DNA of 34,938 nucleotides from Patescibacteria group bacterium (lineage in GTDB: Bacteria > Patescibacteriota > Minisyncoccia > UBA6257 > GWB1-50-10). Under the pieces are notes generated by a model. That model was given only the letters and a program-made list of their open reading frames with translations, had not been told where the DNA came from and ran no database searches. Below are positions 3,069 to 34,113 of this stretch, piece by piece (position 1 is the stretch's first letter; each line of letters opens with the position of its first letter). The stretch spans positions 1 through 34,938 of the forward strand of contig JBBTZM010000005.1 in NCBI GenBank assembly GCA_038061335.1, in the 5' to 3' direction. Position numbers and translations under genes: made by a program.

Positions 3069-3228
3069 CGAATATGTAAACATTTAAATATGTAAATATA
3101 TAAATATGCAAATTTTTTCGGTTGCAGTACTTTTTGGAGCGGCATACCATCTCGTGCGAGACGTGCTGCAAATAGCGGGTATCCAAAATGATGTTTTACA
3201 TATTTAAATCTTTACATATTTAAATTCT
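3069..3228. repeat. inverted 'acatttaaatatgtaaa' word repeats flanking an about 80-nt unique core
   Basis: Left arm 3071-3113 (atatgtaaacatttaaatatgtaaatat...) and right arm 3194-3225 (ttttacatatttaaatctttacatatttaaat). Core stem is 3122-3130/3163-3171. A related word copy lies at 3697-3719. Confidence 0.7.
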
Positions 3229-3234
3229 CAAAAT

Positions 3235-3696
3235 ATGGCAACGATTCAACGATTTGAGGACCTCGTGTGTTGGCAAAAATCGCGCCTTCTCGTAAGAGAA
3301 ATATATAAAGCAATGCAAGGCTGTAAAGATTACGGTTTCCGTGACCAGATTCAGCGTGCCGCGGTGTCCGTTTTATCCAACATCGCGGAAGGATTCGAAA
3401 GAGGAACAAAACAAGAATTTTTGAACTATCTCTATATCGCAAAAGGGTCCGCGGGCGAAGTCCGCGCTCAATTATACGTTGCCCTGGATGTCGGCCATAT
3501 AAATATTGAAACATTTACATATTTAAGTGGTCTTGCGCTCGATTGCTCCCGCCTCATACAAAGTTTCGCGGAGAAAGTAAAAGGCGGCTCAAGGCAGGGG
3601 ATGCAATGTAAGCCCGTACAAAAGCCCGACCCCGTAAAGGAGATAATAAAGGAAATGACCCCGGAGGTGTATAAGAGATTTTACAAAGACGAATAA
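3235..3696 (+). CDS. four-helix-bundle protein (23S rRNA intervening-sequence protein family)
   Basis: Family-typical sequence: FEDLVCWQKSRLLVREIY...RDQIQRAAVSVLSNIAEGFERGTKQEFLNYLYIAKGSAGEVRAQLYVA. Confidence 0.8.
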   Translation: MATIQRFEDLVCWQKSRLLVREIYKAMQGCKDYGFRDQIQRAAVSVLSNIAEGFERGTKQEFLNYLYIAKGSAGEVRAQLYVALDVGHINIETFTYLSGLALDCSRLIQSFAEKVKGGSRQGMQCKPVQKPDPVKEIIKEMTPEVYKRFYKDE

Positions 3697-3754
3697 AAAT
3701 ATTTAAACATTTAAATGATTTTAGAAAAAGAAATACAGATGATACAATACTATC

Positions 3755-5501: not shown

Positions 5502-7545
5502 CGTAAAGAATCCGAATATAAACTATCGGCGTCTCGCTGGCATCGCGACCGTCTATCTTGGGAGCGGTGTTTCCCCGAAAAAGCCATCTTCTCTCGGGCT
5601 TCGCCTCGGAGTCGGCGCGGGATTTTTTCTTCTCCTTCTTTTCGGAGGTGTGTTTCTTTTGGGGACGCGGCATCTAAAAAATGTTGCCGCGGAGAAGGGA
5701 GAACTCATCGCGAAAAATATGCTCGCCTCCATTCAGCTCATTCAGGAAATGAATCCGGAAGAGGCGAGGCGCGCGCTCGAAGAAAATCGGAAAGAATTAG
5801 AAGAACTTGAGAGAATGGTCCGGGGAGGAAAGAAGCAGGCGATTCTCGGGGGCTTGGGAGAGGTGTTTCCCGGAATCCGTCTTAGTGTAGGACTCTTCGG
5901 GAAAGTATCGGAATTTAATCTTACGTTTCTGAAGCTCACGGAAATTATGTCGGAACTGCAGGCAAAGGGATTCGACTATTTTATGCATGACGGCGCATCG
6001 TTTGTGGCGCTTCTTGAAAAATCCAAAGCCGCCATACGCGACCTTACGAAAGAAGCGGCGGAGATTCAAAATAAAAGCGCGGGGCTCGCGAGCATTTCGG
6101 AATCAATGGCGAAATTTAACGGCACATTTCGCGAAGCGTACGTGAAGTATACTTCGGAACTCCACGGATGGGATGCAGGCCTCGAAAGCATCATTACCCT
6201 TCTTAATTCCAAGGTGGATCGCCACATCCTTCTTATCTTCCACAATCCCTCGGAGATGCGGCCCGCGGGCGGGTTTATCGGCTCGTATGGAGACATTGTA
6301 GTCCGGGACGGGCAGATGCAGAGCATGGATGTAGGCGACATTTACTGGCCCGACCACCCGAATAATTTCGAGAGAAAAATTATTCCTCCGCTTCCGCTCC
6401 AAAAATTGACGAAGGATTGGGGCGCGCGGGACGCGAACTGGTTTTTCGACTTCCCCACTTCGGCAAAAATAGTGAGGGAATTTTTAGAATCCTCCAAGGT
6501 GTACACGGAAAAGAAGGTCGTGTTTGAGGGGGCGATTGCCATAAATACAAAGGTGTTGGGAAGCATATTGGAATTCGTGGGCCCGATAGAGGCGCCCGAA
6601 TATGAGCTTACCATTACAAAGGACAATTTTTTGGCGGAGCTTCAAAGAGAGGTCGAGATCGGACGCGACAAAGAGCCGGGCAAAAACCCCAAGCGTATTT
6701 TAAGCGTGATTACTCCGACAATTTTTGAGCGCCTGGGCAAACTCGGCGAAGTAGAAAAGAAGGCGCTTGTGGAGCGCGTGGGCGAACATGTGGAGAAAAA
6801 GGATATTATGCTCGCCATGAAGGACGCTACGCTCATGAGCTTCTTTGGCTCGCGAGAGATGGACGGGAGCGTGTACGAGCTCCCCACCGGATTTTGGGGC
6901 GCGTATCTTGGGGTCGTAAACGCCAATATCGGAGGGGAGAAAACAGACGCTTTCATGGAAGAAAAAATTACGGGAAAGATTGACGTGTCAAACGACGGGA
7001 GCTCGTTCGTTACGCTTGGGGTCGCGCGAGCCCACCACGGAAAGGATGAAAAGGACCGGTGGTATCGCGCGGAAAATAAAAATTTCATTCAGGTCTACGC
7101 GAATCCGGATTCGAGCATTGTGGGCGTGGAGGGGAATACGAAGGGCGTGAAGTTCGAAGGGAGGTATGATAAAAAAGTATATGAGGAGATAGAGGAGGTA
7201 AAAACAATTGAAGAAACCGCGGTGTACCTTACGGATAAGTCGCTTTGGACAATGGACGCGTTTGGCAAAAAGGTGTTCGCGACATGGTTCAACGTGCCCG
7301 CGGGCGAGGCGCGCACGCTTGGCCTGAAATACGAGATTGGAGGAGAGAGCAACAAGGACCTCGTGAAAGGAAAGCCGTACACCCTCATTTTTGAGAAGCA
7401 GTCGGGAGTCGAGAGCCCCGTCGGCATTGACCTTAGGGCGCCTTTTGGATTCGTCTGGCAGGAATCCGGGGAGTCGGTCTATCGTTTTGAACGCCCGAAT
7501 CCAAAGGCGCGGGAGATTGTGGAACTCCATCTTGTGAAAAAATAA
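5458..7545 (+). CDS. DUF4012 domain-containing membrane protein
   Basis: N-terminal TM segment (GAGFFLLLLFGGVFLLG) and the motif RPAGGFIGSYGDIVVRDG, which I recall as DUF4012-typical. Overlaps the upstream gene by 44 nt, so the start is uncertain. Confidence 0.7.
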   Translation: MQEVPKQNIIPVLVDVKNPNINYRRLAGIATVYLGSGVSPKKPSSLGLRLGVGAGFFLLLLFGGVFLLGTRHLKNVAAEKGELIAKNMLASIQLIQEMNPEEARRALEENRKELEELERMVRGGKKQAILGGLGEVFPGIRLSVGLFGKVSEFNLTFLKLTEIMSELQAKGFDYFMHDGASFVALLEKSKAAIRDLTKEAAEIQNKSAGLASISESMAKFNGTFREAYVKYTSELHGWDAGLESIITLLNSKVDRHILLIFHNPSEMRPAGGFIGSYGDIVVRDGQMQSMDVGDIYWPDHPNNFERKIIPPLPLQKLTKDWGARDANWFFDFPTSAKIVREFLESSKVYTEKKVVFEGAIAINTKVLGSILEFVGPIEAPEYELTITKDNFLAELQREVEIGRDKEPGKNPKRILSVITPTIFERLGKLGEVEKKALVERVGEHVEKKDIMLAMKDATLMSFFGSREMDGSVYELPTGFWGAYLGVVNANIGGEKTDAFMEEKITGKIDVSNDGSSFVTLGVARAHHGKDEKDRWYRAENKNFIQVYANPDSSIVGVEGNTKGVKFEGRYDKKVYEEIEEVKTIEETAVYLTDKSLWTMDAFGKKVFATWFNVPAGEARTLGLKYEIGGESNKDLVKGKPYTLIFEKQSGVESPVGIDLRAPFGFVWQESGESVYRFERPNPKAREIVELHLVKK

Positions 7546-9413
7546 TGAATATTCGGAACTTTTGCATCATTGCCCACATTGACCACGGCAAGTCCACGCT
7601 CGCGGACCGGTTTTTGGAACTTACGAATACCGTGGAGAAACGGAAAATGAAGGCCCAGCTTTTGGACCAGATGGAGCTTGAGCGCGAGCGGGGAATCACG
7701 ATTAAAATGGCCCCTGTGAGAATGATGTATCATTCTCACAGGGGCCATCCTGAGCGAAGCGAAGGATCCAGAGATCCTTCAGCAAGGCTTCAGGATGACG
7801 AAAAAAATCAAAAATTTGTTTTGAATTTGATAGACACTCCCGGCCACAGCGATTTTTCGTACGAAGTTTCCCGCGCCTTGCACGCGGTTGAGGGCGCTAT
7901 CCTTTTAGTGGACGCGACCCAGGGCATTCAGGCCCAGACCCTCGCGAACTTGCGCGCGGCCGAGGCCGCGGGCCTTACCATCATAGGGGCTCTAAACAAG
8001 GTGGACCTGAACCCCCCGGGAATGGACGACTTGACTTTGGAGCTCGCGGAACTCATTCACGCGGAGCCGGATGAAATTCACCGCGTTTCCGGAAAAACGG
8101 GGCAGGGCGTGGAACAACTTTTACAGGCGGTGGTAGAAAAGATCCCGCCTCCGTCAATCCGCGTCAATCCGCGTAATAATCCGCGTGAGTCCGCGATGCC
8201 CGCGAGGGCATTGGTTTTCGATTCTTTCTACGACAACCACAAGGGCATTGTGGCCTCGGTGCGGGTGATGAATGGCATATTTTTAGGAGGCAAGGAAACC
8301 ATATTTGTGGCAACGGAACGAAAGTGGAAGCCAAAGGAAATCGGTATATTTGCGCCTCAATGTACGCCAAAAGAAACGTTAGAGGAAGGAGAAATAGGGT
8401 ATATCGCGACCGGAGTAAAAGATGTGGAAGACATCAAGATCGGAGATACCGCAATCCAAGGAGTTCGCGAGCCGGATATGTCGCTCCTCCTCGCTGGCTA
8501 CAAAGAGCCAAGCCCCGTGGTCTTTATTTCGTTTTATCCGGAAGACGCGGACGAGCACGAGGAACTCGGTAAGGCGCTCCAGAAACTTCGTTTAACGGAT
8601 TCGGCAATGACTATAGAGCCGGATGCAAACGAGGTTTTGGGGCGCGGCTTCAAGGTTGGGTTTTTAGGGAGTTTGCATTTTGAAATTATCGCCGAGCGCC
8701 TGAAGCGGGAATTTGACATCGGGGTTTCGACGACCTTTCCTTCGGTTGCGTATCGCGTGAAAATAAAAGGAGAATGGAGCGTGATTACGAACCCCATGGA
8801 CCTGCCCCCGGACGCCGAAATAGTAGAAGAGCCAATCGTGCGGGTGGAGATTTTAATTCCGGAGACGCACGTCAATAGTTTTTTCGGATTTCAGGAGCAT
8901 TTCCGATTTGGAGCAATCGAAACCGAAACACAAGGGAAAAGAATGCTCATTCGCGCCATGATGCCCCTTTCTGAACTCATGAGCGACTTTGACGACAAAT
9001 TGAAATCCGCGACGCAAGGATATGCCTCTTTTAGTTATGAGGTTGCGGGATACGAGCGGGCCGACATGGTACGGGTGGATTTTTTGGTAGCCGGAGCGAT
9101 TATCCCGGGCATGAGCCGCCTCTTCCACAAAAGCACTTTTGAGAAGGAAGCGCGGAAAACCGTGGAGCGGCTAAAAGAACTCTTGTCTCGCCAGCAGTTT
9201 GCTCAGGCCATCCAGGCGAGCGCCTTGGGGCGGATTATCGCGCGCGAGAACATTCCGGCGCTTAGTAAAAATGTCACCGGACACCTGTATGGAGGGGACA
9301 GGACGAGAAAGATGAAACTCTGGAAAAAACAGAAAAGAGGCAAGGAGAAGCTGAAAGAACGGGCGCACGTGGAAATCACGCCGGAGGTGTTTCGTGAGCT
9401 CTTAAAAAAATAA
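7545..9413 (+). CDS. lepA: elongation factor 4 (LepA) carrying an in-frame 21-codon insertion
   Basis: AHIDHGKST (G1), DTPGH (G3), NKVD (G4) and a full-length LepA C-terminal domain. The TAATG start overlaps the stop of the upstream gene. Confidence 0.95.
   Translation: MNIRNFCIIAHIDHGKSTLADRFLELTNTVEKRKMKAQLLDQMELERERGITIKMAPVRMMYHSHRGHPERSEGSRDPSARLQDDEKNQKFVLNLIDTPGHSDFSYEVSRALHAVEGAILLVDATQGIQAQTLANLRAAEAAGLTIIGALNKVDLNPPGMDDLTLELAELIHAEPDEIHRVSGKTGQGVEQLLQAVVEKIPPPSIRVNPRNNPRESAMPARALVFDSFYDNHKGIVASVRVMNGIFLGGKETIFVATERKWKPKEIGIFAPQCTPKETLEEGEIGYIATGVKDVEDIKIGDTAIQGVREPDMSLLLAGYKEPSPVVFISFYPEDADEHEELGKALQKLRLTDSAMTIEPDANEVLGRGFKVGFLGSLHFEIIAERLKREFDIGVSTTFPSVAYRVKIKGEWSVITNPMDLPPDAEIVEEPIVRVEILIPETHVNSFFGFQEHFRFGAIETETQGKRMLIRAMMPLSELMSDFDDKLKSATQGYASFSYEVAGYERADMVRVDFLVAGAIIPGMSRLFHKSTFEKEARKTVERLKELLSRQQFAQAIQASALGRIIARENIPALSKNVTGHLYGGDRTRKMKLWKKQKRGKEKLKERAHVEITPEVFRELLKK
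7729..7797 (+). repeat. in-frame palindromic insertion inside lepA (two hairpins)
   Basis: 7729-7747 is the exact reverse complement of 7708-7726. 7746-7797 is an imperfect palindrome (catcctga...gaaggatc caga gatccttc...tcaggatg). It encodes HSHRGHPERSEGSRDPSARLQ between the G2 and G3 motifs. Confidence 0.8.
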
Positions 9414-10052: not shown

Positions 10053-11000
10053 ATGGCAATTCCCGCAATCGTATTTATCGTAAGCGCGCTTATCCTCGCG
10101 AAATCCGCGGACTATTTTACGGACGCGGCCGCGAAAATTGGCAGAGTCCTCGGCGCTCCGCCCTTCATTATCGGGGTGACGGTGGTTGCCCTCGGGACCT
10201 CCCTCCCGGAACTCGTATCGTCCATTGTGGCGGTAACAAGCGGCGCCTCGGAGATAGTGGCCGGCAACATCATTGGCGCGAATATCGCGAACATCTTTTT
10301 TATTCTGGGCATTATCGTGATTCTCGGGAGAAAGGTAAAAATTGATTACGATATCATAAGCGTTGACCTGCCGTTTCTTCTCGGTTCCGCGCTTCTTCTT
10401 ACTTTCGCGGTTTGGGATGGGAAATTTACTTGGACCGAGGGAGCGCTCTTTCTCGTGGGAATTGTAATCTATCTCGCCTATACCGTGTACGCGGAAAAGA
10501 ACCCAAAGGACACAAGAATAGAAAAACAAATTAAAAAAGGGAGGAAGAAAAAACTTGAGGCGCAAACAGCTCTAAAATTTTTTGGCGGAGGGATCGGCAT
10601 TTATATCGGCGCGACTTCTCTCGTGGGCTCGGTGGTACAACTTGGTGAGGTCCTCGACATAGGGACCGGAATTATCGCAATGACCGCAGTCGCTCTCGGT
10701 ACGACCCTGCCGGAACTTTTTGTGAGCATTGTCGCCGTCCGAAAAGGAAATCCCGAAATCGCGATAGGAAACATCCTTGGCTCAAACATCTTCAATTCGC
10801 TGGGCATTATCGGTGTTGCTTCTCTTTTCGGGAGTATCGCGGTGCCTGCTTCCGTGCTCATGTTCGGAATCCCGATGCTCCTTGCGGGAACCTTTCTCTT
10901 TATTTTCATCACCGAAGACAGGGAAATCACTGCGTGGGAGGGCTGGCTTCTTTTGGTGTTCTATGTCTTCTTTTTGGGTAAGACCCTTGGTATTATGTAG
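10053..11000 (+). CDS. Ca2+/Na+ antiporter (CaCA, YrbG-type)
   Basis: Two alpha-repeats: GTSLPELVSS...GNIIGANIANIF and GTTLPELFVS...GNILGSNIFNSL. Polytopic membrane protein. Confidence 0.85.
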   Translation: MAIPAIVFIVSALILAKSADYFTDAAAKIGRVLGAPPFIIGVTVVALGTSLPELVSSIVAVTSGASEIVAGNIIGANIANIFFILGIIVILGRKVKIDYDIISVDLPFLLGSALLLTFAVWDGKFTWTEGALFLVGIVIYLAYTVYAEKNPKDTRIEKQIKKGRKKKLEAQTALKFFGGGIGIYIGATSLVGSVVQLGEVLDIGTGIIAMTAVALGTTLPELFVSIVAVRKGNPEIAIGNILGSNIFNSLGIIGVASLFGSIAVPASVLMFGIPMLLAGTFLFIFITEDREITAWEGWLLLVFYVFFLGKTLGIM

Positions 11001-20357: not shown

Positions 20358-20725
20358 GTTGTGGAAACCCCCAGCGGATTTTTCGGGCGGCGGGGCCTCA
20401 AATACTCTTTGATTCGTTCACGATCCTCGTTTTCCTTATCGCCCTTGAAATAGAGCTCTATAAATTCAATTCGTTGTTCTTGCTCAACATACGAATATAT
20501 GACTCGCAGAAGATGATTATTTCGCAGGGCGCGGCATGCCAAGTGTGCTTTTACAATTTTGATTGTTACCAAAGAGGAAATAATAATGAAATTTTTACCA
20601 ATGCCGGTTGGAGCAGTGAAAAGAACTCTTTTGAACTTTTCGAAGTCATCGCCAAGTGTCTTATATTTTTTAGAAAGCCGTTTGAATTCTTTTTGAAATT
20701 CTGGCAGTTCACTAAAGTTCGTCAT
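20354..20725 (-). CDS. putative RelE/ParE-superfamily-like toxin
   Basis: Small basic protein directly downstream of, and overlapping by 14 nt, a DUF4065 antitoxin gene. RVIYSYVEQEQRIEFIELYFKGDKENED resembles the RelE/HigB C-terminal core. The family call is tentative. Confidence 0.5.
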   Translation of the reverse strand: MTNFSELPEFQKEFKRLSKKYKTLGDDFEKFKRVLFTAPTGIGKNFIIISSLVTIKIVKAHLACRALRNNHLLRVIYSYVEQEQRIEFIELYFKGDKENEDRERIKEYLRPRRPKNPLGVSTT

Positions 20726-21503
20726 ACTCTCTTACGGAAGTTTTCTCTGGACGATAAAAAACGTGCTCGTATTCAAGAGGTTCCCTGTCTTTTGCGGCAA
20801 CCCAAGGAGTATCTAAATGTGACAACGCCGAAATTTGTGTCGCGGTCAGATCTCCCAATCGGTCAATTTCCCAGTCAATATGCGCAAGTTCTTGCGCGGA
20901 AAGAGCCGATAAATCAAGCGGCTCATTCGGATTAACAAGATACTTTGTTTGGTCGTGCTTATAGAATTTACTTTTTATCTTTTCAACTTTTGCATCTCTT
21001 TCCATCTGGTTTATGATTTTTGCGAACATGACCGGCGTAGGGCCGTAGTGATTCTTTATATATTTGGCGCCGATAAGCTGCTTTTCAAATTTTTCGTAGT
21101 AATCAAAGTCAATAAAATAAAGTAACTTATAAAGCACAGTTTGTCCGATATTCGGTTTGCCGCCTATCTTCGCCAAAATATAAAGGAGCGTTTGTTCAAA
21201 TTTTTCTGCTTTCTCTTGTGGGACGCTGATGCGAATTTCGCCCTTGGCTTCTTGTTTCTGTTTCTTTTTACCCTCAATCTTAACGACCGTTTTCGTATCT
21301 TCTTTGCCCTCTAAAAAATTTTCAAAAGGAATATCAAAAACCTCCGCTAACTTTTTGGCTTCGGTGATGGTTAAATCTCGTTTCCCCTGTTCTATCTGCA
21401 TATAGGTAGGGCGAGACATTTTAAGTGCGGACGCCAAAAACTCCTGCGTCAAATTGCGCTTTTTTCGTTGTTCTTGAATGAATTTTGCAAGATAATTAAC
21501 CAT
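20712..21503 (-). CDS. XRE-family HTH fused to a DUF4065 (SocA/Panacea) antitoxin domain
   Basis: N-terminal RKKRNLTQEFLASALKMSRPTYMQIEQGKRDLTITEAKKLAEVFDI. DUF4065-like QTVLYKLLYFIDFDYYEKFEKQLIGAKYIKNHYGPTP. Confidence 0.75.
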   Translation of the reverse strand: MVNYLAKFIQEQRKKRNLTQEFLASALKMSRPTYMQIEQGKRDLTITEAKKLAEVFDIPFENFLEGKEDTKTVVKIEGKKKQKQEAKGEIRISVPQEKAEKFEQTLLYILAKIGGKPNIGQTVLYKLLYFIDFDYYEKFEKQLIGAKYIKNHYGPTPVMFAKIINQMERDAKVEKIKSKFYKHDQTKYLVNPNEPLDLSALSAQELAHIDWEIDRLGDLTATQISALSHLDTPWVAAKDREPLEYEHVFYRPEKTSVREYDEL

Positions 21504-22023: not shown

Positions 22024-22104
22024 GCAAAAGTTGTCCACAGGAGGGCCTATTTACATTTGTGGTAGTTGTGTATAATAGAGATACACAATATAAGATACAA
22101 ATAT

Positions 22105-22190
22105 ACAAATGGTACGAATGATACTAATGATACGAATAAAATTCATTTGTATTATTCGTATCATTAATACAATTCGTATATTGGTATCAT
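22105..22190. repeat. long imperfect inverted repeat of 'tacgaat/attcgta' words upstream of lexA
   Basis: Left arm caaatggtacgaatgatactaatgatacgaataa, right arm ttattcgtatcattaatacaattcgtatattggtatcat. 22149-22193 is nearly identical to 26500-26544. Confidence 0.8.
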
Positions 22191-22196
22191 AGCAAT

Positions 22197-22877: not shown

Positions 22878-22999
22878 AATTTCTAATTTCTAATTTCTAA
22901 TTTCTAAACAATCTCAAATGTTAAAATTTAAAAACGTTTTAGAGATTTGGATTTTGGGTTTGTTTAGAGATTAGGGTTTAGAGATTAGAGATTAAAATT
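22878..22999. repeat. long imperfect inverted repeat of 'ttctaattt / agagatta' words
   Basis: Left arm 22878-22915 (aatttctaatttctaatttctaatttctaaacaatctc), right arm 22942-22999 (gagatttgg...tttagagattagagattaaaatt). It fills the lexA-rarA spacer. Confidence 0.8.
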
Positions 23000-26405: not shown

Positions 26406-26425
26406 GTGTATATTTTAGCACAAAT

Positions 26426-26541
26426 ATGATACAAATATACTAATGGTACGAATGATACTAATGGATACGAATAATTACGAATGAGAATACAGCAGATTAG
26501 TATTATTCGTATCATTAGTACAATTCGTATATTGGTATCAT
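26426..26541. repeat. long imperfect inverted repeat of 'tacgaat/attcgta' words in a divergent promoter region
   Basis: Left arm atgatacaaatatactaatggtacgaatgatactaatggatacgaataattac, right arm gtattattcgtatcattagtacaattcgtatattggtatcat. Confidence 0.8.
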
Positions 26542-26545
26542 AGCT

Positions 26546-27151
26546 ATGGAAACCATCTTTTACATCATTATTTTGCTTTTTTCCGTCGTGATTCACGAAG
26601 TAACTCATGGTCTTGTTGCTGATAAACTCGGCGACCCCACCGCGCGCCTCGCGGGCCGGCTCACCTTAAACCCGATAAAGCATATTGACCTTTTTGGCTC
26701 CATTATTTTGCCGCTTACGATGGCGATTCTCCCCGGCGGCTTTATTTTTGGCTGGGCAAAACCCGTGCCATTCAACCCGTATCACCTGAAACACCCGGAA
26801 CGGGACGCGGCCCTTATCGCGATTGCCGGCCCCATAAGCAATTTTTTGGTGGCCGGGGTTTTTGGCGTTCTTATAAAAATCGGCGAAGCAGCGGCAATTC
26901 CGCTTATCGCGGGGGCTCTCCCGCTTTTTGCGGCAATTGTATGGATAAATATCATTCTCGCGGTTTTTAACTTGGTTCCCATTCCGCCCCTCGACGGCTC
27001 AAAAGTTCTCTTTGCTCTCCTCCCGCGCTCCGCGGATACATTCAAAATGCTTCTTGAACAATACGGATTCATTCTCCTTCTCTTTTTCATTTTCTTCGGA
27101 TTTCAGGTCATAACTCCGCTCATGAGGATTCTCTATGAGTTTTTGGTCTGA
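26546..27151 (+). CDS. site-2 protease family (M50) membrane metalloprotease
   Basis: HEVTHG zinc motif and NLVPIPPLDGSKV. Confidence 0.85.
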   Translation: METIFYIIILLFSVVIHEVTHGLVADKLGDPTARLAGRLTLNPIKHIDLFGSIILPLTMAILPGGFIFGWAKPVPFNPYHLKHPERDAALIAIAGPISNFLVAGVFGVLIKIGEAAAIPLIAGALPLFAAIVWINIILAVFNLVPIPPLDGSKVLFALLPRSADTFKMLLEQYGFILLLFFIFFGFQVITPLMRILYEFLV

Positions 27152-27184: not shown

Positions 27185-27206
27185 TAAACACGTTTTGTAC
27201 ATGAGG

Positions 27207-27243
27207 TACGAATATACGAATACCATACGAATAGTACGAATAT
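27207..27243 (+). repeat. 'tacgaata' word repeat in the rpsL 5' UTR
   Basis: gaggtacgaatatacgaataccatacgaatagtacgaatATCAG. Direct repeats only. Related to 32027-32064 and 34031-34068. Confidence 0.8.
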
Positions 27244-27253
27244 CAGCTTTGGC

Positions 27254-27670
27254 ATGCCTACGGTAAATCAACTTCTAAAACACGCGAGAAAGAGCAGGGT
27301 AAAGAAAGAAAAGACGCCGGCGCTTCGGCGGTATTTTAATTATCTCCACAACAGGCCGGTGGATTCCCCCTCGCCTTTCAAGCGAGGAGTGTGCGTGAAG
27401 GTGTTTACCACGACTCCAAAAAAACCGAACTCCGCGCTCCGAAAAGTGGCGCGCGTGCGGCTTACAAACGGGATGGAGGTAACCGCCTATATCCCGGGAG
27501 AGGGGCATAATCTGCAGGAACACTCGGTGGTCGTGATTCGGGGCGGAAGGGTGAAAGACCTTCCCGGAGTGCGTTACCACGTGGTGCGAGGCGTGCTTGA
27601 CACGCAGGGGGTGGGCCCGAGAAAACAGGGACGTTCAAAATACGGAACAAAGAGACCAAAAGAGCAATAA
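27254..27670 (+). CDS. rpsL: 30S ribosomal protein S12
   Basis: MPTVNQLLK...[31 protein letters not shown]. Confidence 0.97.
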
Positions 27671-27710: not shown

Positions 27711-28184
27711 ATGCGCAAAGGAGGTAAATATAAAAAACAGGAGCCGCAGCCGGACTATAAATATAACCGCATAGACATGGGTCGGTTTATTAACTATTTA
27801 ATGAGCCAGGGTAAAAAGAGCGTGGCGGAAAAGGTGTTTTACGGCGCGCTGGAAGAGGTGGAAAAGAAAACAAAGGCGAACCCGGTGGAGGTGTTTGAGA
27901 AGGCGATGGAAAACACTTCGCCTACCGTGGAGGTTGCCTCCCGCAGGGTGGGAGGGGCGAACTATCAGATTCCCATCGAGGTCCGGCCACAGAGAAAATT
28001 TTATCTTTCCTCGCGGTGGATTATAAACGCGGCGCGAGGAAAAAAGGGAAAGCCGATGCATATCCGGCTTGCCGAAGAAATTATCGCGGCTTCGAAAAAC
28101 GAAGGGGAGGCGATAAAGAAGAAACAGGACACTCATCGCGTGGCTGAAGCAAACCGCGCGTTTGCCTCCTTTTTAAGGAGATAG
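27711..28184 (+). CDS. rpsG: 30S ribosomal protein S7
   Basis: Start at the internal Met (MRKGGKYKKQEP...). Contains VEVASRRVGGANYQIPIEVRPQR. Confidence 0.95.
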   Translation: MRKGGKYKKQEPQPDYKYNRIDMGRFINYLMSQGKKSVAEKVFYGALEEVEKKTKANPVEVFEKAMENTSPTVEVASRRVGGANYQIPIEVRPQRKFYLSSRWIINAARGKKGKPMHIRLAEEIIAASKNEGEAIKKKQDTHRVAEANRAFASFLRR

Positions 28185-28199
28185 GCAGGGGCAAGGAAG

Positions 28200-28285
28200 C
28201 CGGTATGGTAAGGGGGTAAGGGTAAGGTAAAAAAACACTAACTACCTAACCCCTAAACCAAACCGGCATCTCTACCTTAACCCTA
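28200..28285. repeat. imperfect inverted repeat of 'ggtaagg / ccttacc' words
   Basis: ccggtatggtaagggggtaagggtaaggtaa ... ctacctaacccctaaaccaaaccgg ... ctaccttaaccct. Confidence 0.7.
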
Positions 28286-28297
28286 TTACTATTTTGT

Positions 28298-28471
28298 ATG
28301 CCCCGAGAATATCCAATAGAAAAAGTAAGAAATATCGGCATTATCGCCCACATAGACGCGTCGTCCCGCCAAGGCGGGACTTCCCTAAAACCCAGCGGTT
28401 TTAGTATTTCCGCCACGGGGAAACTCCCGTTTCCCCGACCCCTTTCCCGCATCTCTGTGGGCGGCAGGTAA
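28298..28471 (+). pseudogene. duplicated fusA 5' fragment (21 codons) fused to insert-derived sequence (57-codon ORF)
   Basis: 28298-28360 encodes [21 protein letters not shown], identical at the protein level to fusA codons 1-21. It then diverges inside the P-loop and stops at 28469-28471. Confidence 0.8.
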
Positions 28472-28483
28472 TTTATTTAATCT
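28361..28483 (+). other. 123-nt GC-rich three-hairpin insert between the two fusA 5' copies
   Basis: Hairpins at 28362-28380 (gtcccgc-caag-gcgggac), 28385-28404 (ctaaaacc-cagc-ggttttag) and 28416-28437 (cggggaaac-tccc-gtttccccg), the last nested in 28410-28464. Confidence 0.7.
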
Positions 28484-30580
28484 ATGCCAAGGGAATATCC
28501 AATAGAAAAAGTAAGAAATATCGGCATTATCGCCCACATAGATGCCGGAAAAACCACGGCAACCGAGGGTATTTTGTATTTGACGGGCCGGACTCACAAA
28601 ATCGGCGCGGTGCACGAGGGAGACACGCAGATGGACTGGATGGAACAGGAGCGCGAGCGCGGCATCACCATTACTTCGGCGGCCACAACTTGTTTTTGGA
28701 AACCAAAGCACTACCCGTCAAGCGGTACTCATCGCGTGAATATCATTGATACTCCCGGGCACATTGATTTTACGGTTGAGGTGCAGCGTTCACTCCGGGT
28801 CCTCGACGGCGCCGTGGTTCTTTTTGACGGGAAGATGGGGGTGGAGCCCCAGTCCGAAACCGTATGGCACCAGGCGGATGGGTTTGGCGTACCAAGAATT
28901 TGTTTTGTGAACAAGATTAATCAGACCGGCGGCGACTTTTGGAAAAGTTTGAAGTCAATTCGCGAACGCCTAAGCCCCAACGCCACCCCGATCCAAATCC
29001 CAATTGGGTTTGAAAAAGAAATCCGGGGAGTGGTGGACCTTGTAAAAATGAAGGCCTATACCTATAAAAATTACAGCGACAAAGAACTCGGAGAAGAAGA
29101 AATTCCGATTGAGCTCATGGAAGAGGCGAAAAAATGGAGGCATGAACTCATGGAAAAGGCCGTGGAGTCGGATGACACGCTTATGGAAAAATATCTCGCC
29201 GGAAAAGAATTGGAAGAGAAAGAATTGGTTCACGCGATTCGCAAAAGTACGCTTCAGGGCAAACTCTTTCCGGTTTTGGGAGGAGACGGAAGGGGAGTCA
29301 TCGTGGAGACGCTTCTTGACGCGGTGGTAAACTACTTGCCGGCTCCGACCGACCTCCCGCCCGTACAAGGGACACATCCGAAAACGGACAACAAAGAAGA
29401 ACGGAGCGCGAAAGACGAGGAACCATTTGCCGCGCTCGCTTTCAAAATTGCCTCGGACCCGTTTGTGGGCGCGCTTACCTTTTTTCGCGTGTATTCCGGA
29501 ACGCTTGAGAAGGGAAGTTACATTTTAAACGCCTCAAAAAATTCTCAGGAGCGGGTGGGGCGCATCGTCCGTCTCCATGCGAACCAGCGGGAAGACGTGG
29601 ACGCCGTGTATGCCGGAGAAATTGCGGCAATTGTTGGCTTGAAAAACACCGGAACCGGAGACACGCTCGCAAATCCCGAGCATCCGATTCTTCTTGAACG
29701 CATCTCTTTCCCCGAACCCGTGATTTCCGTAAGCATTGAGCCAAAGACAAAGGCGGACCAGGAGAAGATGGGCATCGCGCTTCGACGACTTTCGGAAGAG
29801 GACCCGACCTTTAAGGTGGGAGGGAACAAGGAGACGGGCGAGACCGTGATTTCCGGCATGGGAGAACTTCATTTGGAAATTCTTGTGGACCGGATGAAGC
29901 GCGAATTTACCGTGGAGGCAAACGTGGGCCGCCCGCAGGTGGCGTACAAGGAAACGATTAGGGCAGAGGCCGAGGCCGAAGGGAAATATATTAAGCAGTC
30001 CGGAGGACGCGGTCAGTATGGACACGTATGGCTCCGAGTTGCTCCGAGAGAGCGCGGCGCGGGATTTGAGTTTGTAACCAAGATACGCGGAGGAGTTATT
30101 CCTCAGGAATATATTCCCGCCGTTGGAAAGGGCGCGAAAGAGGCCCTGGACAAGGGCGTCGTTGCCGGATATCCGCTTGTGGACATCGAGGCAACGCTTT
30201 ATGATGGCTCGTTTCACGAGGTGGACTCTTCGGAAATGGCGTTCAAAATTGCGGGCTCCATGGCGTTTCAGGAAGCGGTACGGCGCGCCAGTCCCGTGCT
30301 CCTTGAGCCGATTATGAAAGTGCAGATTATCGTTTCCGCGAATTTTTTGGGAGACGTAACCGGAGACGTAAACGCGAAACGGGGAAAGATTCTTCAAATG
30401 GGAGAGCGCGAGAGCGTACGGCTCGTGGATACGGAAATTCCGCTTTCCGAGATGTTTGGATACTCGACCACGCTTCGCTCCATGACCCAAGGGCGCGGCT
30501 CCTTCACCATGGAGTTTAGCCACTACGCCGAGGTGCCGAAACATATCGCGGAGCAAATTGCGGAAGGAAAAAGAAGGTGA
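28484..30580 (+). CDS. fusA: elongation factor G
   Basis: [22 protein letters not shown] and full five-domain length (698 aa). Confidence 0.97.
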
Positions 30581-30759: not shown

Positions 30760-31956
30760 ATGGCAGAAAAAGCAAAATTCAATCGTTCGAAGCCGCACGT
30801 AAACGTCGGCACTATCGGACACGTTGACCACGGAAAGACGACTTTGACCGCGGCGATTACGCACGTCTTGCACATGAAAGGTCTCGCGAAAGAAGAGCGG
30901 GTGGACCAGATTGACAACGCTCCGGAAGAGAAGGCCCGGGGAATCACCATCGCGCTCCATCACTCGGAGTACGAATCCGAGAAAAGGCACTACGCGCACA
31001 TCGACGCGCCGGGCCACGCGGACTACATTAAGAACATGATTACGGGCGCGGCCCAGATGGACGGCGCGGTTCTCGTGGTTTCGGCCTCGGACGGCCCCAT
31101 GCCCCAGACCCGTGAGCACATTCTGCTTGCCCGCCAGGTGGGAGTTCCGGCCATTGTTGTCTTCTTGAACAAAGTGGACACGGTGGATGACCCGGACCTT
31201 GTGGACCTCGTTGAGTCCGAAGTTCGGGAGCTCTTGAACAAATACGAGTTTCCGGGAGATACGATTCCGATTATTCGGGGTTCGGCCCTAAAGGCCCTGG
31301 AAACAAAGTCCCTGGACGAGGCGGCTGCGAAGCCGATTCTTGAACTCATCGAAGCGCTCGATTCGCACATTCCGGAGCCGGTTCGCGACCGCGAAAAGCC
31401 ATTTCTTATGGCAATCGAAGATATTTTCTCGATTGAGGGACGCGGCACGGTGGTGACGGGACGCATTGAGCGCGGAGTTGTGAAGTTGAACGATGAGGTG
31501 GAGATTATCGGACTCCGACCCACCGTGAAGACCGTCGTTACGGGTATCGAAATGTTCCAAAAGCTTTTGGATGAGGGTCAGGCGGGCGACAATGTGGGAG
31601 TTCTTCTCCGCGGAACGAAGAAAGAGGATGTGGAGCGCGGGCAGGTGCTCGCGAAGCCGGGCTCGGTTACTCCGCACACCGAATTTATCGCCGAGGTGTA
31701 TGTACTCTCCAAAGAGGAGGGCGGGCGGCACACTCCGTTTTTCAAGGGCTACAAACCCCAATTCTATTTCCGGACAACGGACGTAACCGGAGAAGTAATT
31801 TTGGGAGAGGGAATTGAAATGGTGATGCCCGGAGATACGGCAAACGTAACGGTCACGCTTATTTCCCCGGTCGCTCTGGAAGAGAAACAGCGATTCGCGA
31901 TTCGCGAAGGAGGAAAGACCGTGGGAGCGGGAGTGGTAACGAAGGTTATGAAGTAG
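30760..31956 (+). CDS. tuf: elongation factor Tu
   Basis: [28 protein letters not shown]. 398 aa. Confidence 0.98.
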
Positions 31957-32026
31957 ATTCAAAATTTTCTTGAATCAGGGCACAGGAGCGCAGGTTCCTG
32001 TGTCCAAATTCGCGAAGATTGAAAGT

Positions 32027-32103
32027 GAGCTACGAATGTACGAATAGCATACGAATATACGAATCCGATTCGTATATTCGTACAAGATTTGTACATTCGT
32101 ATA
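32027..32103. repeat. 'tacgaat' word hairpin between tuf and rpsJ
   Basis: Left arm 32031-32064, loop ccg, right arm 32068-32101. 32027-32064 matches 34031-34068 at 37 of 38 positions. Confidence 0.85.
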
Positions 32104-32110
32104 TCAGGGC

Positions 32111-32440
32111 ATGCCCCCAAAAAAAGAAGAACAAAAAGAGCGGCTACGCATCAAGGTAAAGGCCTATGACGCGAAGCTTATAGAAAATTCCGTGCGCCAG
32201 ATTATCGAGGCCATTCGTCGGCAGGGCGGAGAGGTGGTGGGTCCGATTCCCCTCCCCACGGAAATCCGAAAATACACGGTGAACCGTTCGACATTCGTGC
32301 ACACGAAATCGCGTGACCAGTTTGAAATGCGGATTCACAAGCGTCTGGTTGACATCATAAGCCCCCAGCAGAAAATGGTGGAGTCGCTCACCAACTTAAA
32401 TCTTCCTTCCGGCGTTGACATTGAGGTAAAGATGGGATAA
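32111..32440 (+). CDS. rpsJ: 30S ribosomal protein S10
   Basis: LRIKVKAYDAKLIENSVRQIIE...GPIPLPT...FTVNRS-type core...RLVDI. Confidence 0.97.
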   Translation: MPPKKEEQKERLRIKVKAYDAKLIENSVRQIIEAIRRQGGEVVGPIPLPTEIRKYTVNRSTFVHTKSRDQFEMRIHKRLVDIISPQQKMVESLTNLNLPSGVDIEVKMG

Positions 32441-33699: not shown

Positions 33700-34032
33700 A
33701 TGGGTATTTTCAAAAAACAACCGAATAAAGAGAAAAAAAATGAGTCCCTCACCTTGAAAAAGGTTTCGCATTGGATAGAGCGGCCGTGGCTCAGCGAAAA
33801 AGCGACTGATTTGAAGGAGGCAAACGCCTATGTATTTAAGACGCGCCTCGATGCCGGGAAAACGGAAATTAAAAAAGAAATAGAGGCGCGATACGGCGTT
33901 CGCGTCCAGGGAGTGCGCGTCATACGGAGGATGGGGAAGGCGAAACGCTTCGGCAAACACGTTGGACACCGCGCGAATACCAAAAAGGCAATCGTGAAAT
34001 TGCAGAAAGGAGATACCATAGACATCATATGA
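33700..34032 (+). CDS. rplW: 50S ribosomal protein L23
   Basis: Position between rplD and rplB. Contains YVFKTRLDAGKTEIKKEIEARYGVRV and KKAIVKLQKGDTID. Confidence 0.9.
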   Translation: MGIFKKQPNKEKKNESLTLKKVSHWIERPWLSEKATDLKEANAYVFKTRLDAGKTEIKKEIEARYGVRVQGVRVIRRMGKAKRFGKHVGHRANTKKAIVKLQKGDTIDII

Positions 34033-34105
34033 GCTACGAATATACGAATAGCATACGAATATACGAATTTGTATATTCGTAGAAGATTCGTAAATTCGTA
34101 GATCA
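34031..34105. repeat. 'tacgaat' word hairpin between rplW and rplB
   Basis: Left arm 34035-34068, right arm up to 34100, then ATCAG. It begins on the rplW stop codon. Confidence 0.85.
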
Positions 34106-34113
34106 GCGAAAGC

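Follow-up and report, generated by a model that had tools for sequence, protein, structure and literature searches.

A miniature, protein-less element that probably restores the gene it interrupts, at fusA in a Patescibacteria group bacterium

The fusA locus and its duplicated start

The DNA analyzed here, referred to as the window, is a stretch of 34,938 nt from contig JBBTZM010000005.1 (assembly GCA_038061335.1) of a Patescibacteria group bacterium. It contains the str operon genes rpsL (27254-27670), rpsG (27711-28184), fusA (28484-30580) and tuf (30760-31956), and the subject of this study is a putative 186-nt insertion element at the 5' end of fusA, the gene for elongation factor G (EF-G). 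The sequences 28298-28360 and 28484-28546 have identical translations of 21 residues each, and these 63-nt copies differ at 5 nt (copy positions 6, 7, 9, 60, and 63), all synonymous, around 50 identical nucleotides (28307-28356 = 28493-28542), as described in an earlier note made on this DNA from its letters. The gcg/gcc difference is uninformative, since GCN encodes alanine whatever its third base, and for the four informative differences that remain in the window the probability that as many random substitutions would all be synonymous is 0.0014.

The features of the locus are listed below under the names used throughout the text, which anticipate the interpretation developed later (hp, hairpin; ORF, open reading frame; uORF, upstream ORF).

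27711-28184, plus strand: rpsG (ribosomal protein S7), an ORF with an S7-like translation, upstream of fusA in the str operon
28185-28297, plus strand: native rpsG-fusA spacer, 113 nt, folding into a low-complexity G-rich/C-rich long hairpin, then TTTTGT and ATG
28298-28360, plus strand: displaced native fusA 5' end, codons 1-21, cut between AHIDA and GKT
28298-28471, plus strand: 57-codon chimeric ORF, in which 21 codons of EF-G are followed by 36 from the element; stop TAA at 28469-28471
28345-28360, plus strand: left target half-site CGCCCACATAGACGCG, complementary at 14/16 positions to 28448-28463, forming the closing helix of the minimum-free-energy fold
28361-28546, plus strand: whole inserted element, 186 nt, made up of the folded module, the segment complementary to the target, a leader and a replacement fusA 5' end
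28363-28380, plus strand: hp1, variable hairpin GTCCCGCC AA GGCGGGAC, with unrelated hairpins at the same position in other family members
28378-28452, plus strand: conserved family core, made of hp2 (28385-28404), a linker (28405-28415), hp3 (28416-28437) and the pyrimidine tail GACCCCTTTCCC (28437-28448)
28448-28463, plus strand: target-complementary segment CGCATCTCTGTGGGCG, the reverse complement of fusA G1-motif codons
28464-28483, plus strand: element-borne AT-rich leader ahead of the replacement start codon, holding the uORF stop and unlike the native spacer in style
28484-28546, plus strand: element-borne replacement fusA 5' end, codons 1-21, with only synonymous differences from the native copy
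28484-30580, plus strand: intact fusA (EF-G, 698 aa), an ORF whose protein is 100% identical to MEK7478957.1

The insert between the two copies (28361-28483, 123 nt) forms three hairpins of 7-9 bp and is more stably folded than shuffled sequences (z = -4.4); the three hairpins, the 57-codon ORF ending at 28471, and the intact 698-aa EF-G had all been described in the earlier note and were recovered by folding and ORF analysis. With the flanks added, a four-way junction appears in the minimum-free-energy fold, closed by a helix between 28345-28360 and 28448-28463. The ends of the element (TCGTCC... and ...GATGCC) are not inverted repeats, and the flanking repeat is 63 nt long, diverged at silent sites only, and ends at the gene boundary. 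A miniature inverted-repeat transposable element (MITE) or classical insertion sequence (IS) was therefore discarded, as the ends are not inverted and the repeat is not a duplication of 2-15 bp. A self-splicing intron or intein was likewise ruled out by the complete second gene end, the in-frame stop at 28469-28471, and the lack of any intron family match.

The stop of the chimeric ORF lies 12 nt ahead of the fusA ATG. No Shine-Dalgarno sequence was seen ahead of either fusA start, nor ahead of the rpsG and tuf starts. The 57-aa ORF has no gene call in any public record checked, and exact look-ups of EF-G and of the 57-aa ORF returned no matching record. The sequence of hp1 (GTCCCGCCAAGGCGGGAC) was found twice in a viral contig of IMG/VR (L084, 692-709 and 4047-4064, both intergenic), where it adjoins GCTCAGGATGAC-type repeats in a contig otherwise unrelated to the window, and hp1 appears to be a generic, widely shared hairpin.

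A second assembly and the origin of the two copies

Another assembly, deposited separately (GCA_964366735.1, locus L085), agrees with the window at 10,087/10,097 nt and has exactly the same junctions, with its counterpart of rpsG at 3228-3701 (called with PF00177). Its upstream fusA copy reads GTT CGC where the window has GTA AGA, which are three further differences, all synonymous. With these included, the copies originally differed at 8/63 nt, and the seven informative differences are all silent (P = 5e-6). The differences between the two assemblies are unevenly distributed, 6/10 of them falling in two tight clusters at 28327, 28328 and 28330 (displaced fusA copy) and at 31047, 31053 and 31062 (tuf). 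At the first three positions the window strain equals its own downstream copy, and because L085 differs at exactly these positions within the 50 nt, the 50-nt identity in the window strain is best read as a secondary product of gene conversion between the fusA copies. For the same reason the identical 50-nt center was rejected as a recombination core.

The second assembly also bears on whether the duplication exists at all. The source is a metagenome-assembled genome, in which the alleles of two strains could have been joined in tandem, and the earlier note had advised excluding an assembly artefact. However, the independently deposited L085, with 10 single-nucleotide differences per 10 kb, shows identical junctions and a more diverged upstream copy, and the same architecture occurs on dozens of contigs from different projects and assemblers, so that an assembly artefact is extremely improbable.

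Comparison with related genomes, another step that the earlier note had proposed, revealed that the closest other EF-Gs (87-88% amino-acid identity; L081, L082 and L083) are encoded by loci with a single fusA start, rpsG-fusA spacers of 39-53 nt, and no insert. Besides, neither a second AHID-type start nor the insert core was present in 80 fusA loci of GTDB species representatives. The rpsG-fusA spacers of this clade are lineage-specific, of low complexity and composed of short motifs, and 28185-28297 has the same style; the L083 spacer ends, like that of the window, in TTTTGT-ATGCCCCGAGAATA. Moreover, the upstream copy matches L083 at 56-57/63 nt and the downstream copy at 51/63 nt, when third-codon-position identity to genus-level relatives elsewhere in fusA is only 53%. 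Because of this spacer context and the greater similarity to L083, the upstream copy would be the native 5' end, and the insert plus the downstream copy would be incoming DNA. A simple tandem duplication of the native upstream spacer was rejected, since the sequences upstream of the two copies are unrelated.

A family of conserved structured cores

A metagenome collection was scanned with patterns back-translated from two frames of the insert, which gave at least 600 matches, of which 120 were confirmed and 80 loci kept (L086-L165); the family counts, targets and architecture figures reported from here on are those among the matches listed in that scan. By blastn, window positions 28382-28449 (~68 nt) have matches of 82-98% identity on at least 80 metagenome contigs, reaching 98.5% over 68 nt in L091, and 73 distinct copies align without gaps over 75 columns. 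Both hp2 and hp3 covary, with 98% of cells paired, seven pairs changing on both sides, and 0/500 shuffles reaching the observed values, and the signal collapses in slid controls. A covariance model of the core (R1) scores 97.6 bits at window 28378-28452 (E = 1.5e-23), its sole copy in the window.

Mutual information indicates further contacts within the core. Columns 16 and 35 form a loop-to-linker pair (C-G in 48 and U-A in 20 sequences), and column 30 tracks the pair 10-25 (U with A-U, C with G-C). The tail GACCCCTTTCCC, for its part, mirrors the 3' strand of hp3. The column 30 signal and the tail together suggest pyrimidine-motif triples (U.A-U / C+.G-C) on the fusA-sense strand. The hp3 loops are GNRA when read on the strand opposite fusA, and A.C mismatches outnumber G.U on the sense strand. 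As a separate observation, the linker plus the 5' strand of hp3 (CCGCCAC GGGRAAAC; columns 33-47 of core alignment A3, window 28410-28424) resembles the coding sequence of the GTPase G1 motif (CGCCCAC ... GGNAARAC), and so does the reverse complement of the tail, GGGAAAGGGG (A3 columns 60-71, window 28437-28448), a resemblance that could be coincidence or the relic of a GTPase-derived ancestor.

No family of Rfam 15 matched at gathering or relaxed thresholds, the only hits in the window being two tRNAs; the best sub-threshold match in 28150-28600 reached 24 bits against a cut-off of 75. Additionally, the core was not found in IMG/VR (scans with the translated insert and the core motif) or in PLSDB and INPHARED (blastn). 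The EF-G on the element-bearing contig L087 is closest to EF-Gs of the Candidate Phyla Radiation (CPR), and a limited literature search found no description of such elements, so that this large family at conserved gene ends of CPR bacteria is apparently undescribed.

These data also bear on a one-off local origin, either by tandem duplication or by homology-facilitated illegitimate recombination with a diverged allele, in which case the insert would be the rpsG-fusA spacer of another strain. The spacers of the clade are hypervariable and rich in hairpins, and the insert (123 nt) is close in length to the native spacer (113 nt), as this origin would have it. Nevertheless, a core that is 82-98% identical at unrelated loci on at least 80 contigs already contradicts it, as do the unrelated sequences upstream of the two fusA copies, and we regard such an origin as highly improbable.

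Recurrent architecture and targets

On the element strand, every well-resolved copy presents the same order, which comprises a truncated copy of a gene end, a variable hairpin or short left end, the core, a complementary segment of 10-18 nt, a spacer, and the intact gene, which begins or ends with the same sequence as the truncated copy. The truncated copy lies to the left and the intact gene to the right, ~20-130 nt from the core, and the window fits this arrangement.

The tRNA targets cover about 17 amino-acid specificities and account for at least 45 distinct elements, each placed 38-75 nt away from the 3' end of a tRNA gene that is encoded on the opposite strand. On the other side of these tRNA-linked elements there is a 15-25-nt copy of the 3' strand of the tRNA acceptor/T-arm. 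The spacer at tRNA targets forms a hairpin of terminator type, and another terminator hairpin, unlike the first, follows the displaced fragment. Among protein-coding genes, 5' ends are hit in fusA of three lineages (window, L134, L087), lepA (L094, L097), typA (L125, L164), rplK (L124) and a trxB-like gene (L109), and 3' ends in rpsI (L103, L141, L137) and groEL (L138). Thus, copies beside other GTPase genes, which the earlier note had suggested looking for, do exist (lepA, typA). In every translational GTPase target the cut falls at the G1 motif (AH[IV]D), and the core never occurs as an rpsG-fusA spacer without a displaced fusA copy.

At L122 (3750-4345), three tandem units, each made of a tRNA-Gly 3' fragment, element, complementary segment and spacer, precede a single intact tRNA-Gly, an arrangement expected from repeated insertion at one site. 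The first of these units carries a 33-nt insertion within the hp3 loop.

The two copies of a gene end diverge by 3% to 21%, with changes that are synonymous or conservative. Synonymous differences account for 8/9 in L094 and 12/13 in L109, and the copies of L087 and L124 show ortholog-like replacements in variable residues. At lepA L094 and at typA L125 and L164, the motif AH[IV]D is replaced by AQ[IV]D in the displaced copy, a change in keeping with release from selection.

These observations weigh on the proposal of a selected cis-regulatory leader, in which the 57-codon uORF, as an imitation of the N-terminus of EF-G, would act with the structured RNA to control fusA translation or transcription; the earlier note had raised a regulatory ORF of this kind as an alternative. 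The seven informative copy differences are all synonymous (7/7), the uORF stops 12 nt before the fusA ATG, and the insert is strongly structured, all of which such a leader would account for. However, the structure is missing from all examined fusA loci save those with the same mobile core, including L081-L083 and the 80 GTDB loci, the core is also found downstream of tRNA genes in antisense orientation, and the rpsI and groEL copies sit at 3' ends, all of them places in which the logic of a uORF fails, and displaced copies at other GTPase loci have H-to-Q changes in the invariant AHID motif. Regulation is thus a very unlikely origin of the structure, and the 57-codon ORF is probably a by-product of insertion, although the uORF may matter for fusA translation.

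The target-complementary segment

In the window, the segment 28448-28463 is complementary to the displaced copy at 14/16 positions (28345-28360) and to the intact gene at 14/15 (28531-28545). The complementary segment fits the intact tRNA better than the displaced fragment in 38/45 loci (mean scores 11.4 vs 8.3), and in nearly all loci its match stops at the 5' edge of the T-loop, which is position 22 counted from the 3' end of the tRNA. In 24/45 tRNA loci the segment extends 3 nt or more past the point where the fragment homology ends. In the rplK locus L124 it reaches 7 nt to either side of the joint, and in L094, L125, L164 and L122 it is perfectly complementary to the intact gene over 14-16 nt. 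The junction-proximal 4-9 nt of the displaced fragment are often element-specific (TCAC or GAGTCGAAC) in place of the tRNA's own T-loop, and therefore the exchange point probably lies a few nucleotides inside the segment covered by this putative guide.

The closer match to the intact gene could arise if guide and replacement copy were inherited together from a donor lineage, an account that covers neither the fixed end point nor the overshoot of the segment. The complementarity suggests guide-directed integration, and it is a real possibility, though somewhat short of an even chance, that the target is picked by pairing with this segment and that the exchange is carried out by an enzyme encoded elsewhere. 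More tentatively, core and complementary segment may form a guide module, either RNA or folded single-stranded DNA, that programs a trans-acting CPR recombinase or transposase to chosen sequences, in a manner that would resemble bridge RNA, would be reprogrammable, and would carry a replacement gene end as cargo.

Search for a mobilizing enzyme

To seek recurrent neighbors, 538 ORFs around the elements were clustered. Two kinds of protein recurred, neither at a fixed position: a LAGLIDADG/WhiA-like protein on 5 contigs, and large serine recombinases on 4 (L088, L114, L129 and L153). The LAGLIDADG-like ORF encodes ~230 aa with an N-terminal helix-turn-helix (HTH) and the motif LLAMLYLGEGAK, and it lies 0.1-1.3 kb from elements in no fixed orientation:

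L114, 5047-5752: LAGLIDADG-like ORF
L130, 4435-5212: LAGLIDADG-like ORF
L150, 830-1439: LAGLIDADG-like ORF
L155, 2797-3136: LAGLIDADG-like ORF
L162, 303-1002: LAGLIDADG-like ORF

No ORF lies inside the 186-nt element, which thus encodes no integrase. Locus L095, with ORFs between the core and the expected intact gene, was considered as an autonomous version and rejected, since the two genes there, one nucleotidyltransferase-like and one phosphoribosyltransferase-like, are unrelated and the tRNA is present only as a fragment.

A rival reading is homing without a dedicated recombinase, in which a cassette of core plus gene end would spread between orthologous sites of different CPR lineages by homologous recombination or double-strand-break repair; a free-standing homing endonuclease might make the break, or natural transformation might supply the donor. 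The conserved gene sequences would then serve as homology arms, and the complementary segment would merely close the folded module. The copy differences do look like ortholog divergence, the segment resembles the element-side copy, and co-inheritance from a donor yields both; moreover, gene conversion between fusA copies is seen across the two strains, and the LAGLIDADG/WhiA-like ORF lies 0.1-1.3 kb from elements on 5 distinct contigs. Yet homing explains spread among orthologous sites and not the same core and architecture at more than 25 different targets, its presumed cleavage site persists in the intact copy, a mere closing stem would need neither to end at a fixed tRNA position nor to reach beyond the displaced fragment, and the LAGLIDADG-like ORF varies in position and is lacking at most loci, the window included. 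Homing is for these reasons unlikely, though the most probable of the rival readings.

Interpretation of the fusA element

With the family membership, the recurrent architecture, the absence from relatives, the native context of the upstream copy and the target complementarity documented above, 28361-28546 is likely to be a copy of a miniature insertion element that is site-specific, encodes no protein, and restores the gene into which it inserts. This agrees with the proposal in the earlier note of an integrating element carrying its own replacement copy, with no integrase in the window, as the core occurs at many gene ends, the relatives lack the insert, and the upstream context is native. 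The suggestion that a remnant of a larger element was left has to be abandoned, as the element is a complete member of a protein-less family whose elements measure ~190 nt. Similarly, synonymous-only divergence had been taken to mean that both copies evolved as coding sequence, and it is better explained by an origin in functional fusA genes of different lineages than by selection on both copies in place.

The element would consist of four parts, namely a folded module (the variable hairpin, the two conserved hairpins that covary, and the pyrimidine tail), a 10-18-nt stretch complementary to the intact target, a short expression signal (the AT-rich leader in the window, a terminator hairpin at tRNA targets), and a copy of the end of the target gene. 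It would have entered fusA after codon 21 (AHIDA|GKT), shifting the native first 21 codons and the native spacer upstream, where they would now open the 57-codon chimeric ORF, and its own 21 codons would be joined in frame to the remaining fusA, keeping the gene intact. The element's copy would descend from the functional fusA of another lineage, its previous host, which would be why the differences between the copies are silent, and the middle of the displaced copy would have been homogenized later by gene conversion in the window strain. Integration would be performed by an enzyme encoded elsewhere and steered by the complementary segment. Because the RNA upstream of fusA is strongly folded and there is no Shine-Dalgarno sequence, we propose that translation of the 57-codon ORF, whose native initiation region is kept, may open the hairpins and permit re-initiation at fusA.

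Several observations weigh against this interpretation. The intact gene retains the target after insertion, so re-insertion must be limited, and the L122 array indicates that it happens; besides, the interpretation does not account for how an element gains a new gene end when it changes target. None of the 24 ORFs of the 35-kb window compared with Pfam is a recombinase, transposase or reverse transcriptase, and no such enzyme was found at a fixed position beside the elements in the 80 loci. Neither an excised or circular form nor an exact pair of empty and filled sites was seen, for which reason the joint is placed only to ~8 nt. The clues on the active strand conflict, with the GNRA loops and A.C mismatches pointing to the strand opposite fusA and the possible triples to the fusA strand. 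Finally, a sub-class of cores, with TCAC as the hp3 loop and a tail ending in CCT, always lies 15-18 nt from tRNA 5' ends on the opposite strand (either that of tRNA-Thr(ggt), in the interval separating tRNA-Tyr and tRNA-Thr, or that of tRNA-Arg(gcg)) without a flanking repeat or complementary segment:

L102, 3997-4071: sub-class core
L154, 713-787: sub-class core
L126, 4000-4074: sub-class core
L149, 4012-4086: sub-class core
L153, 4140-4214: sub-class core
L144, 2277-2351: sub-class core
L104, 764-838: sub-class core

Comparison with known systems

Restoration of the interrupted gene is well known from larger elements. The e14 element and phage 21 at icd, as well as islands at tRNA and tmRNA genes, insert in a conserved gene end, bring a replacement end, and leave the displaced fragment as a direct repeat; these repeats differ mostly silently, and tandem arrays form at one tRNA. 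The sublocations that integrases target within tRNA genes reportedly include the T-loop, as Williams is said to have described in 2002. The fusA element follows the same gene-end-restoration logic, with fusA intact at 698 aa. However, the integrase of those elements is dedicated to one site, whereas here one non-coding core is found at more than 25 targets, at both 5' and 3' gene ends.

The SXT/R391 integrative and conjugative elements (ICEs) integrate site-specifically in the 5' end of prfC, the gene of a translational GTPase, release factor 3 (RF3) (PMC2791158). They represent the closest case, as the 5' end of a translational GTPase gene is also involved. Hochhut and Waldor are said to have reported in 1999 that SXT provides a new 5' coding end and a promoter for prfC, so that the gene stays functional. 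Nonetheless, SXT is ~100 kb long, has its own tyrosine integrase and relies on a 17-bp attP/attB identity, whereas the window element has 186 nt and no protein, and is distinguished from SXT by its conserved folded core and target-complementary segment.

Cis-mobilizable elements (CIMEs), which are derivatives of integrative elements that have lost autonomy, and MITEs resemble the fusA element in lacking a mobility gene, in being presumably mobilized in trans, and in having many copies across genomes. However, CIMEs are remnants of several kilobases flanked by attL/attR, MITEs have terminal inverted repeats and short target-site duplications, and both are without a conserved structured core, a target-complementary segment or gene-end cargo.

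A further comparison concerns guided systems. The bridge RNA or seekRNA of the IS110/IS1111 elements is a structured non-coding module with target-complementary stretches on both sides of the joint; its target can be programmed, and the RNA gene also exists in stand-alone form (10.1101/2024.01.24.577089; PMC12288879). A possible likeness lies in the complementary segment, which spans the joint in L124 and overshoots the fragment in 24/45 tRNA loci. By contrast, no DEDD/serine recombinase is present in the window and none recurs in the 80 loci, no donor-binding loop is evident, IS110 elements are not known to carry replacement gene ends, and they have no sequence or Rfam similarity to the fusA element.

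The IS200/IS605 elements (and palindrome-associated transposable elements, PATEs) and group II introns, the latter through exon-binding and intron-binding sequences (EBS-IBS), set their target by pairing of an internal sequence with the DNA immediately 5' of the insertion point, and IS200/IS605 ends are structured, with miniature ORF-less derivatives. Yet the IS608 guides are 4 nt long and pair non-canonically, group II introns measure 400 nt or more, undergo splicing and require no replacement exon, and neither group duplicates a gene end, unlike the fusA element. The complementary segment recalls these forms of pairing as well, but neither the proteins nor the ribozyme domains that define the guided systems turned up. 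Integron attC sites and the attP of CTX-phi form an imperfect stem of site-like sequences around a structured region and function in a strand-specific way; these have a conserved stem and a variable center, whereas in the fusA family the center is conserved and the stem follows the target. The comparisons support the view of the fusA feature as a miniature, non-autonomous kind of gene-end-restoring integrative element.

Significance

If this interpretation is correct, essential conserved genes of tiny CPR genomes (fusA, lepA, typA, rplK, rpsI, groEL, and most tRNAs) would be routinely invaded by self-repairing elements of ~190 nt, and the strategy of gene-end restoration would reach protein-less elements. 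That a single non-coding core serves more than 25 targets, with a complementary segment fitting each, would indicate target choice by base pairing, and should pairing indeed pick the targets, the family would be a candidate for a new programmable DNA-insertion mechanism. Under the guide-module proposal, the gene-end cargo would give the element access to the most highly conserved positions in essential genes, for instance the T-loops of tRNAs and the P-loops of GTPases. The family would also mark horizontal exchange among CPR lineages. For annotation, it would account for truncated pseudo-starts, tRNA fragments and spurious small ORFs beside conserved genes in CPR assemblies.

Other features of the window

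The earlier note had associated the fusA insert with a hairpin insertion in the G domain of lepA, which is also in the window. The hairpin is present, and the association did not hold, since it is a different palindromic repeat that scores 5.6 bits with R1. This in-frame palindromic insert (7750-7805, within lepA 7545-9413) has the form CATCCTGAGCGAAGCGAAGGATCC...GGATCCTTC...CTTCAGGATGAC, is translated as HPERSEGSRDPSARLQDDE, and contains GAGCGAAGCGA, which is also present when the left end (TCGCTTCGCTC) of many family members is reverse-complemented.

Genes for a 23S rRNA intervening-sequence protein (PF05635) and for an HTH-Panacea protein (SocA-like antitoxin) occur at 3235-3696 and 20712-21503, respectively. 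Long imperfect palindromes occupy the intergenic regions 22084-22196, 22878-22993, 26422-26547, 27202-27240, 32026-32114 and 34030-34113, in addition to 28185-28297. They are made of short repeated motifs (TACGAATA, TTTCTAA and GGTAAGG), related motifs recur at several spacers, and relatives carry other motifs at the same intergenic positions.

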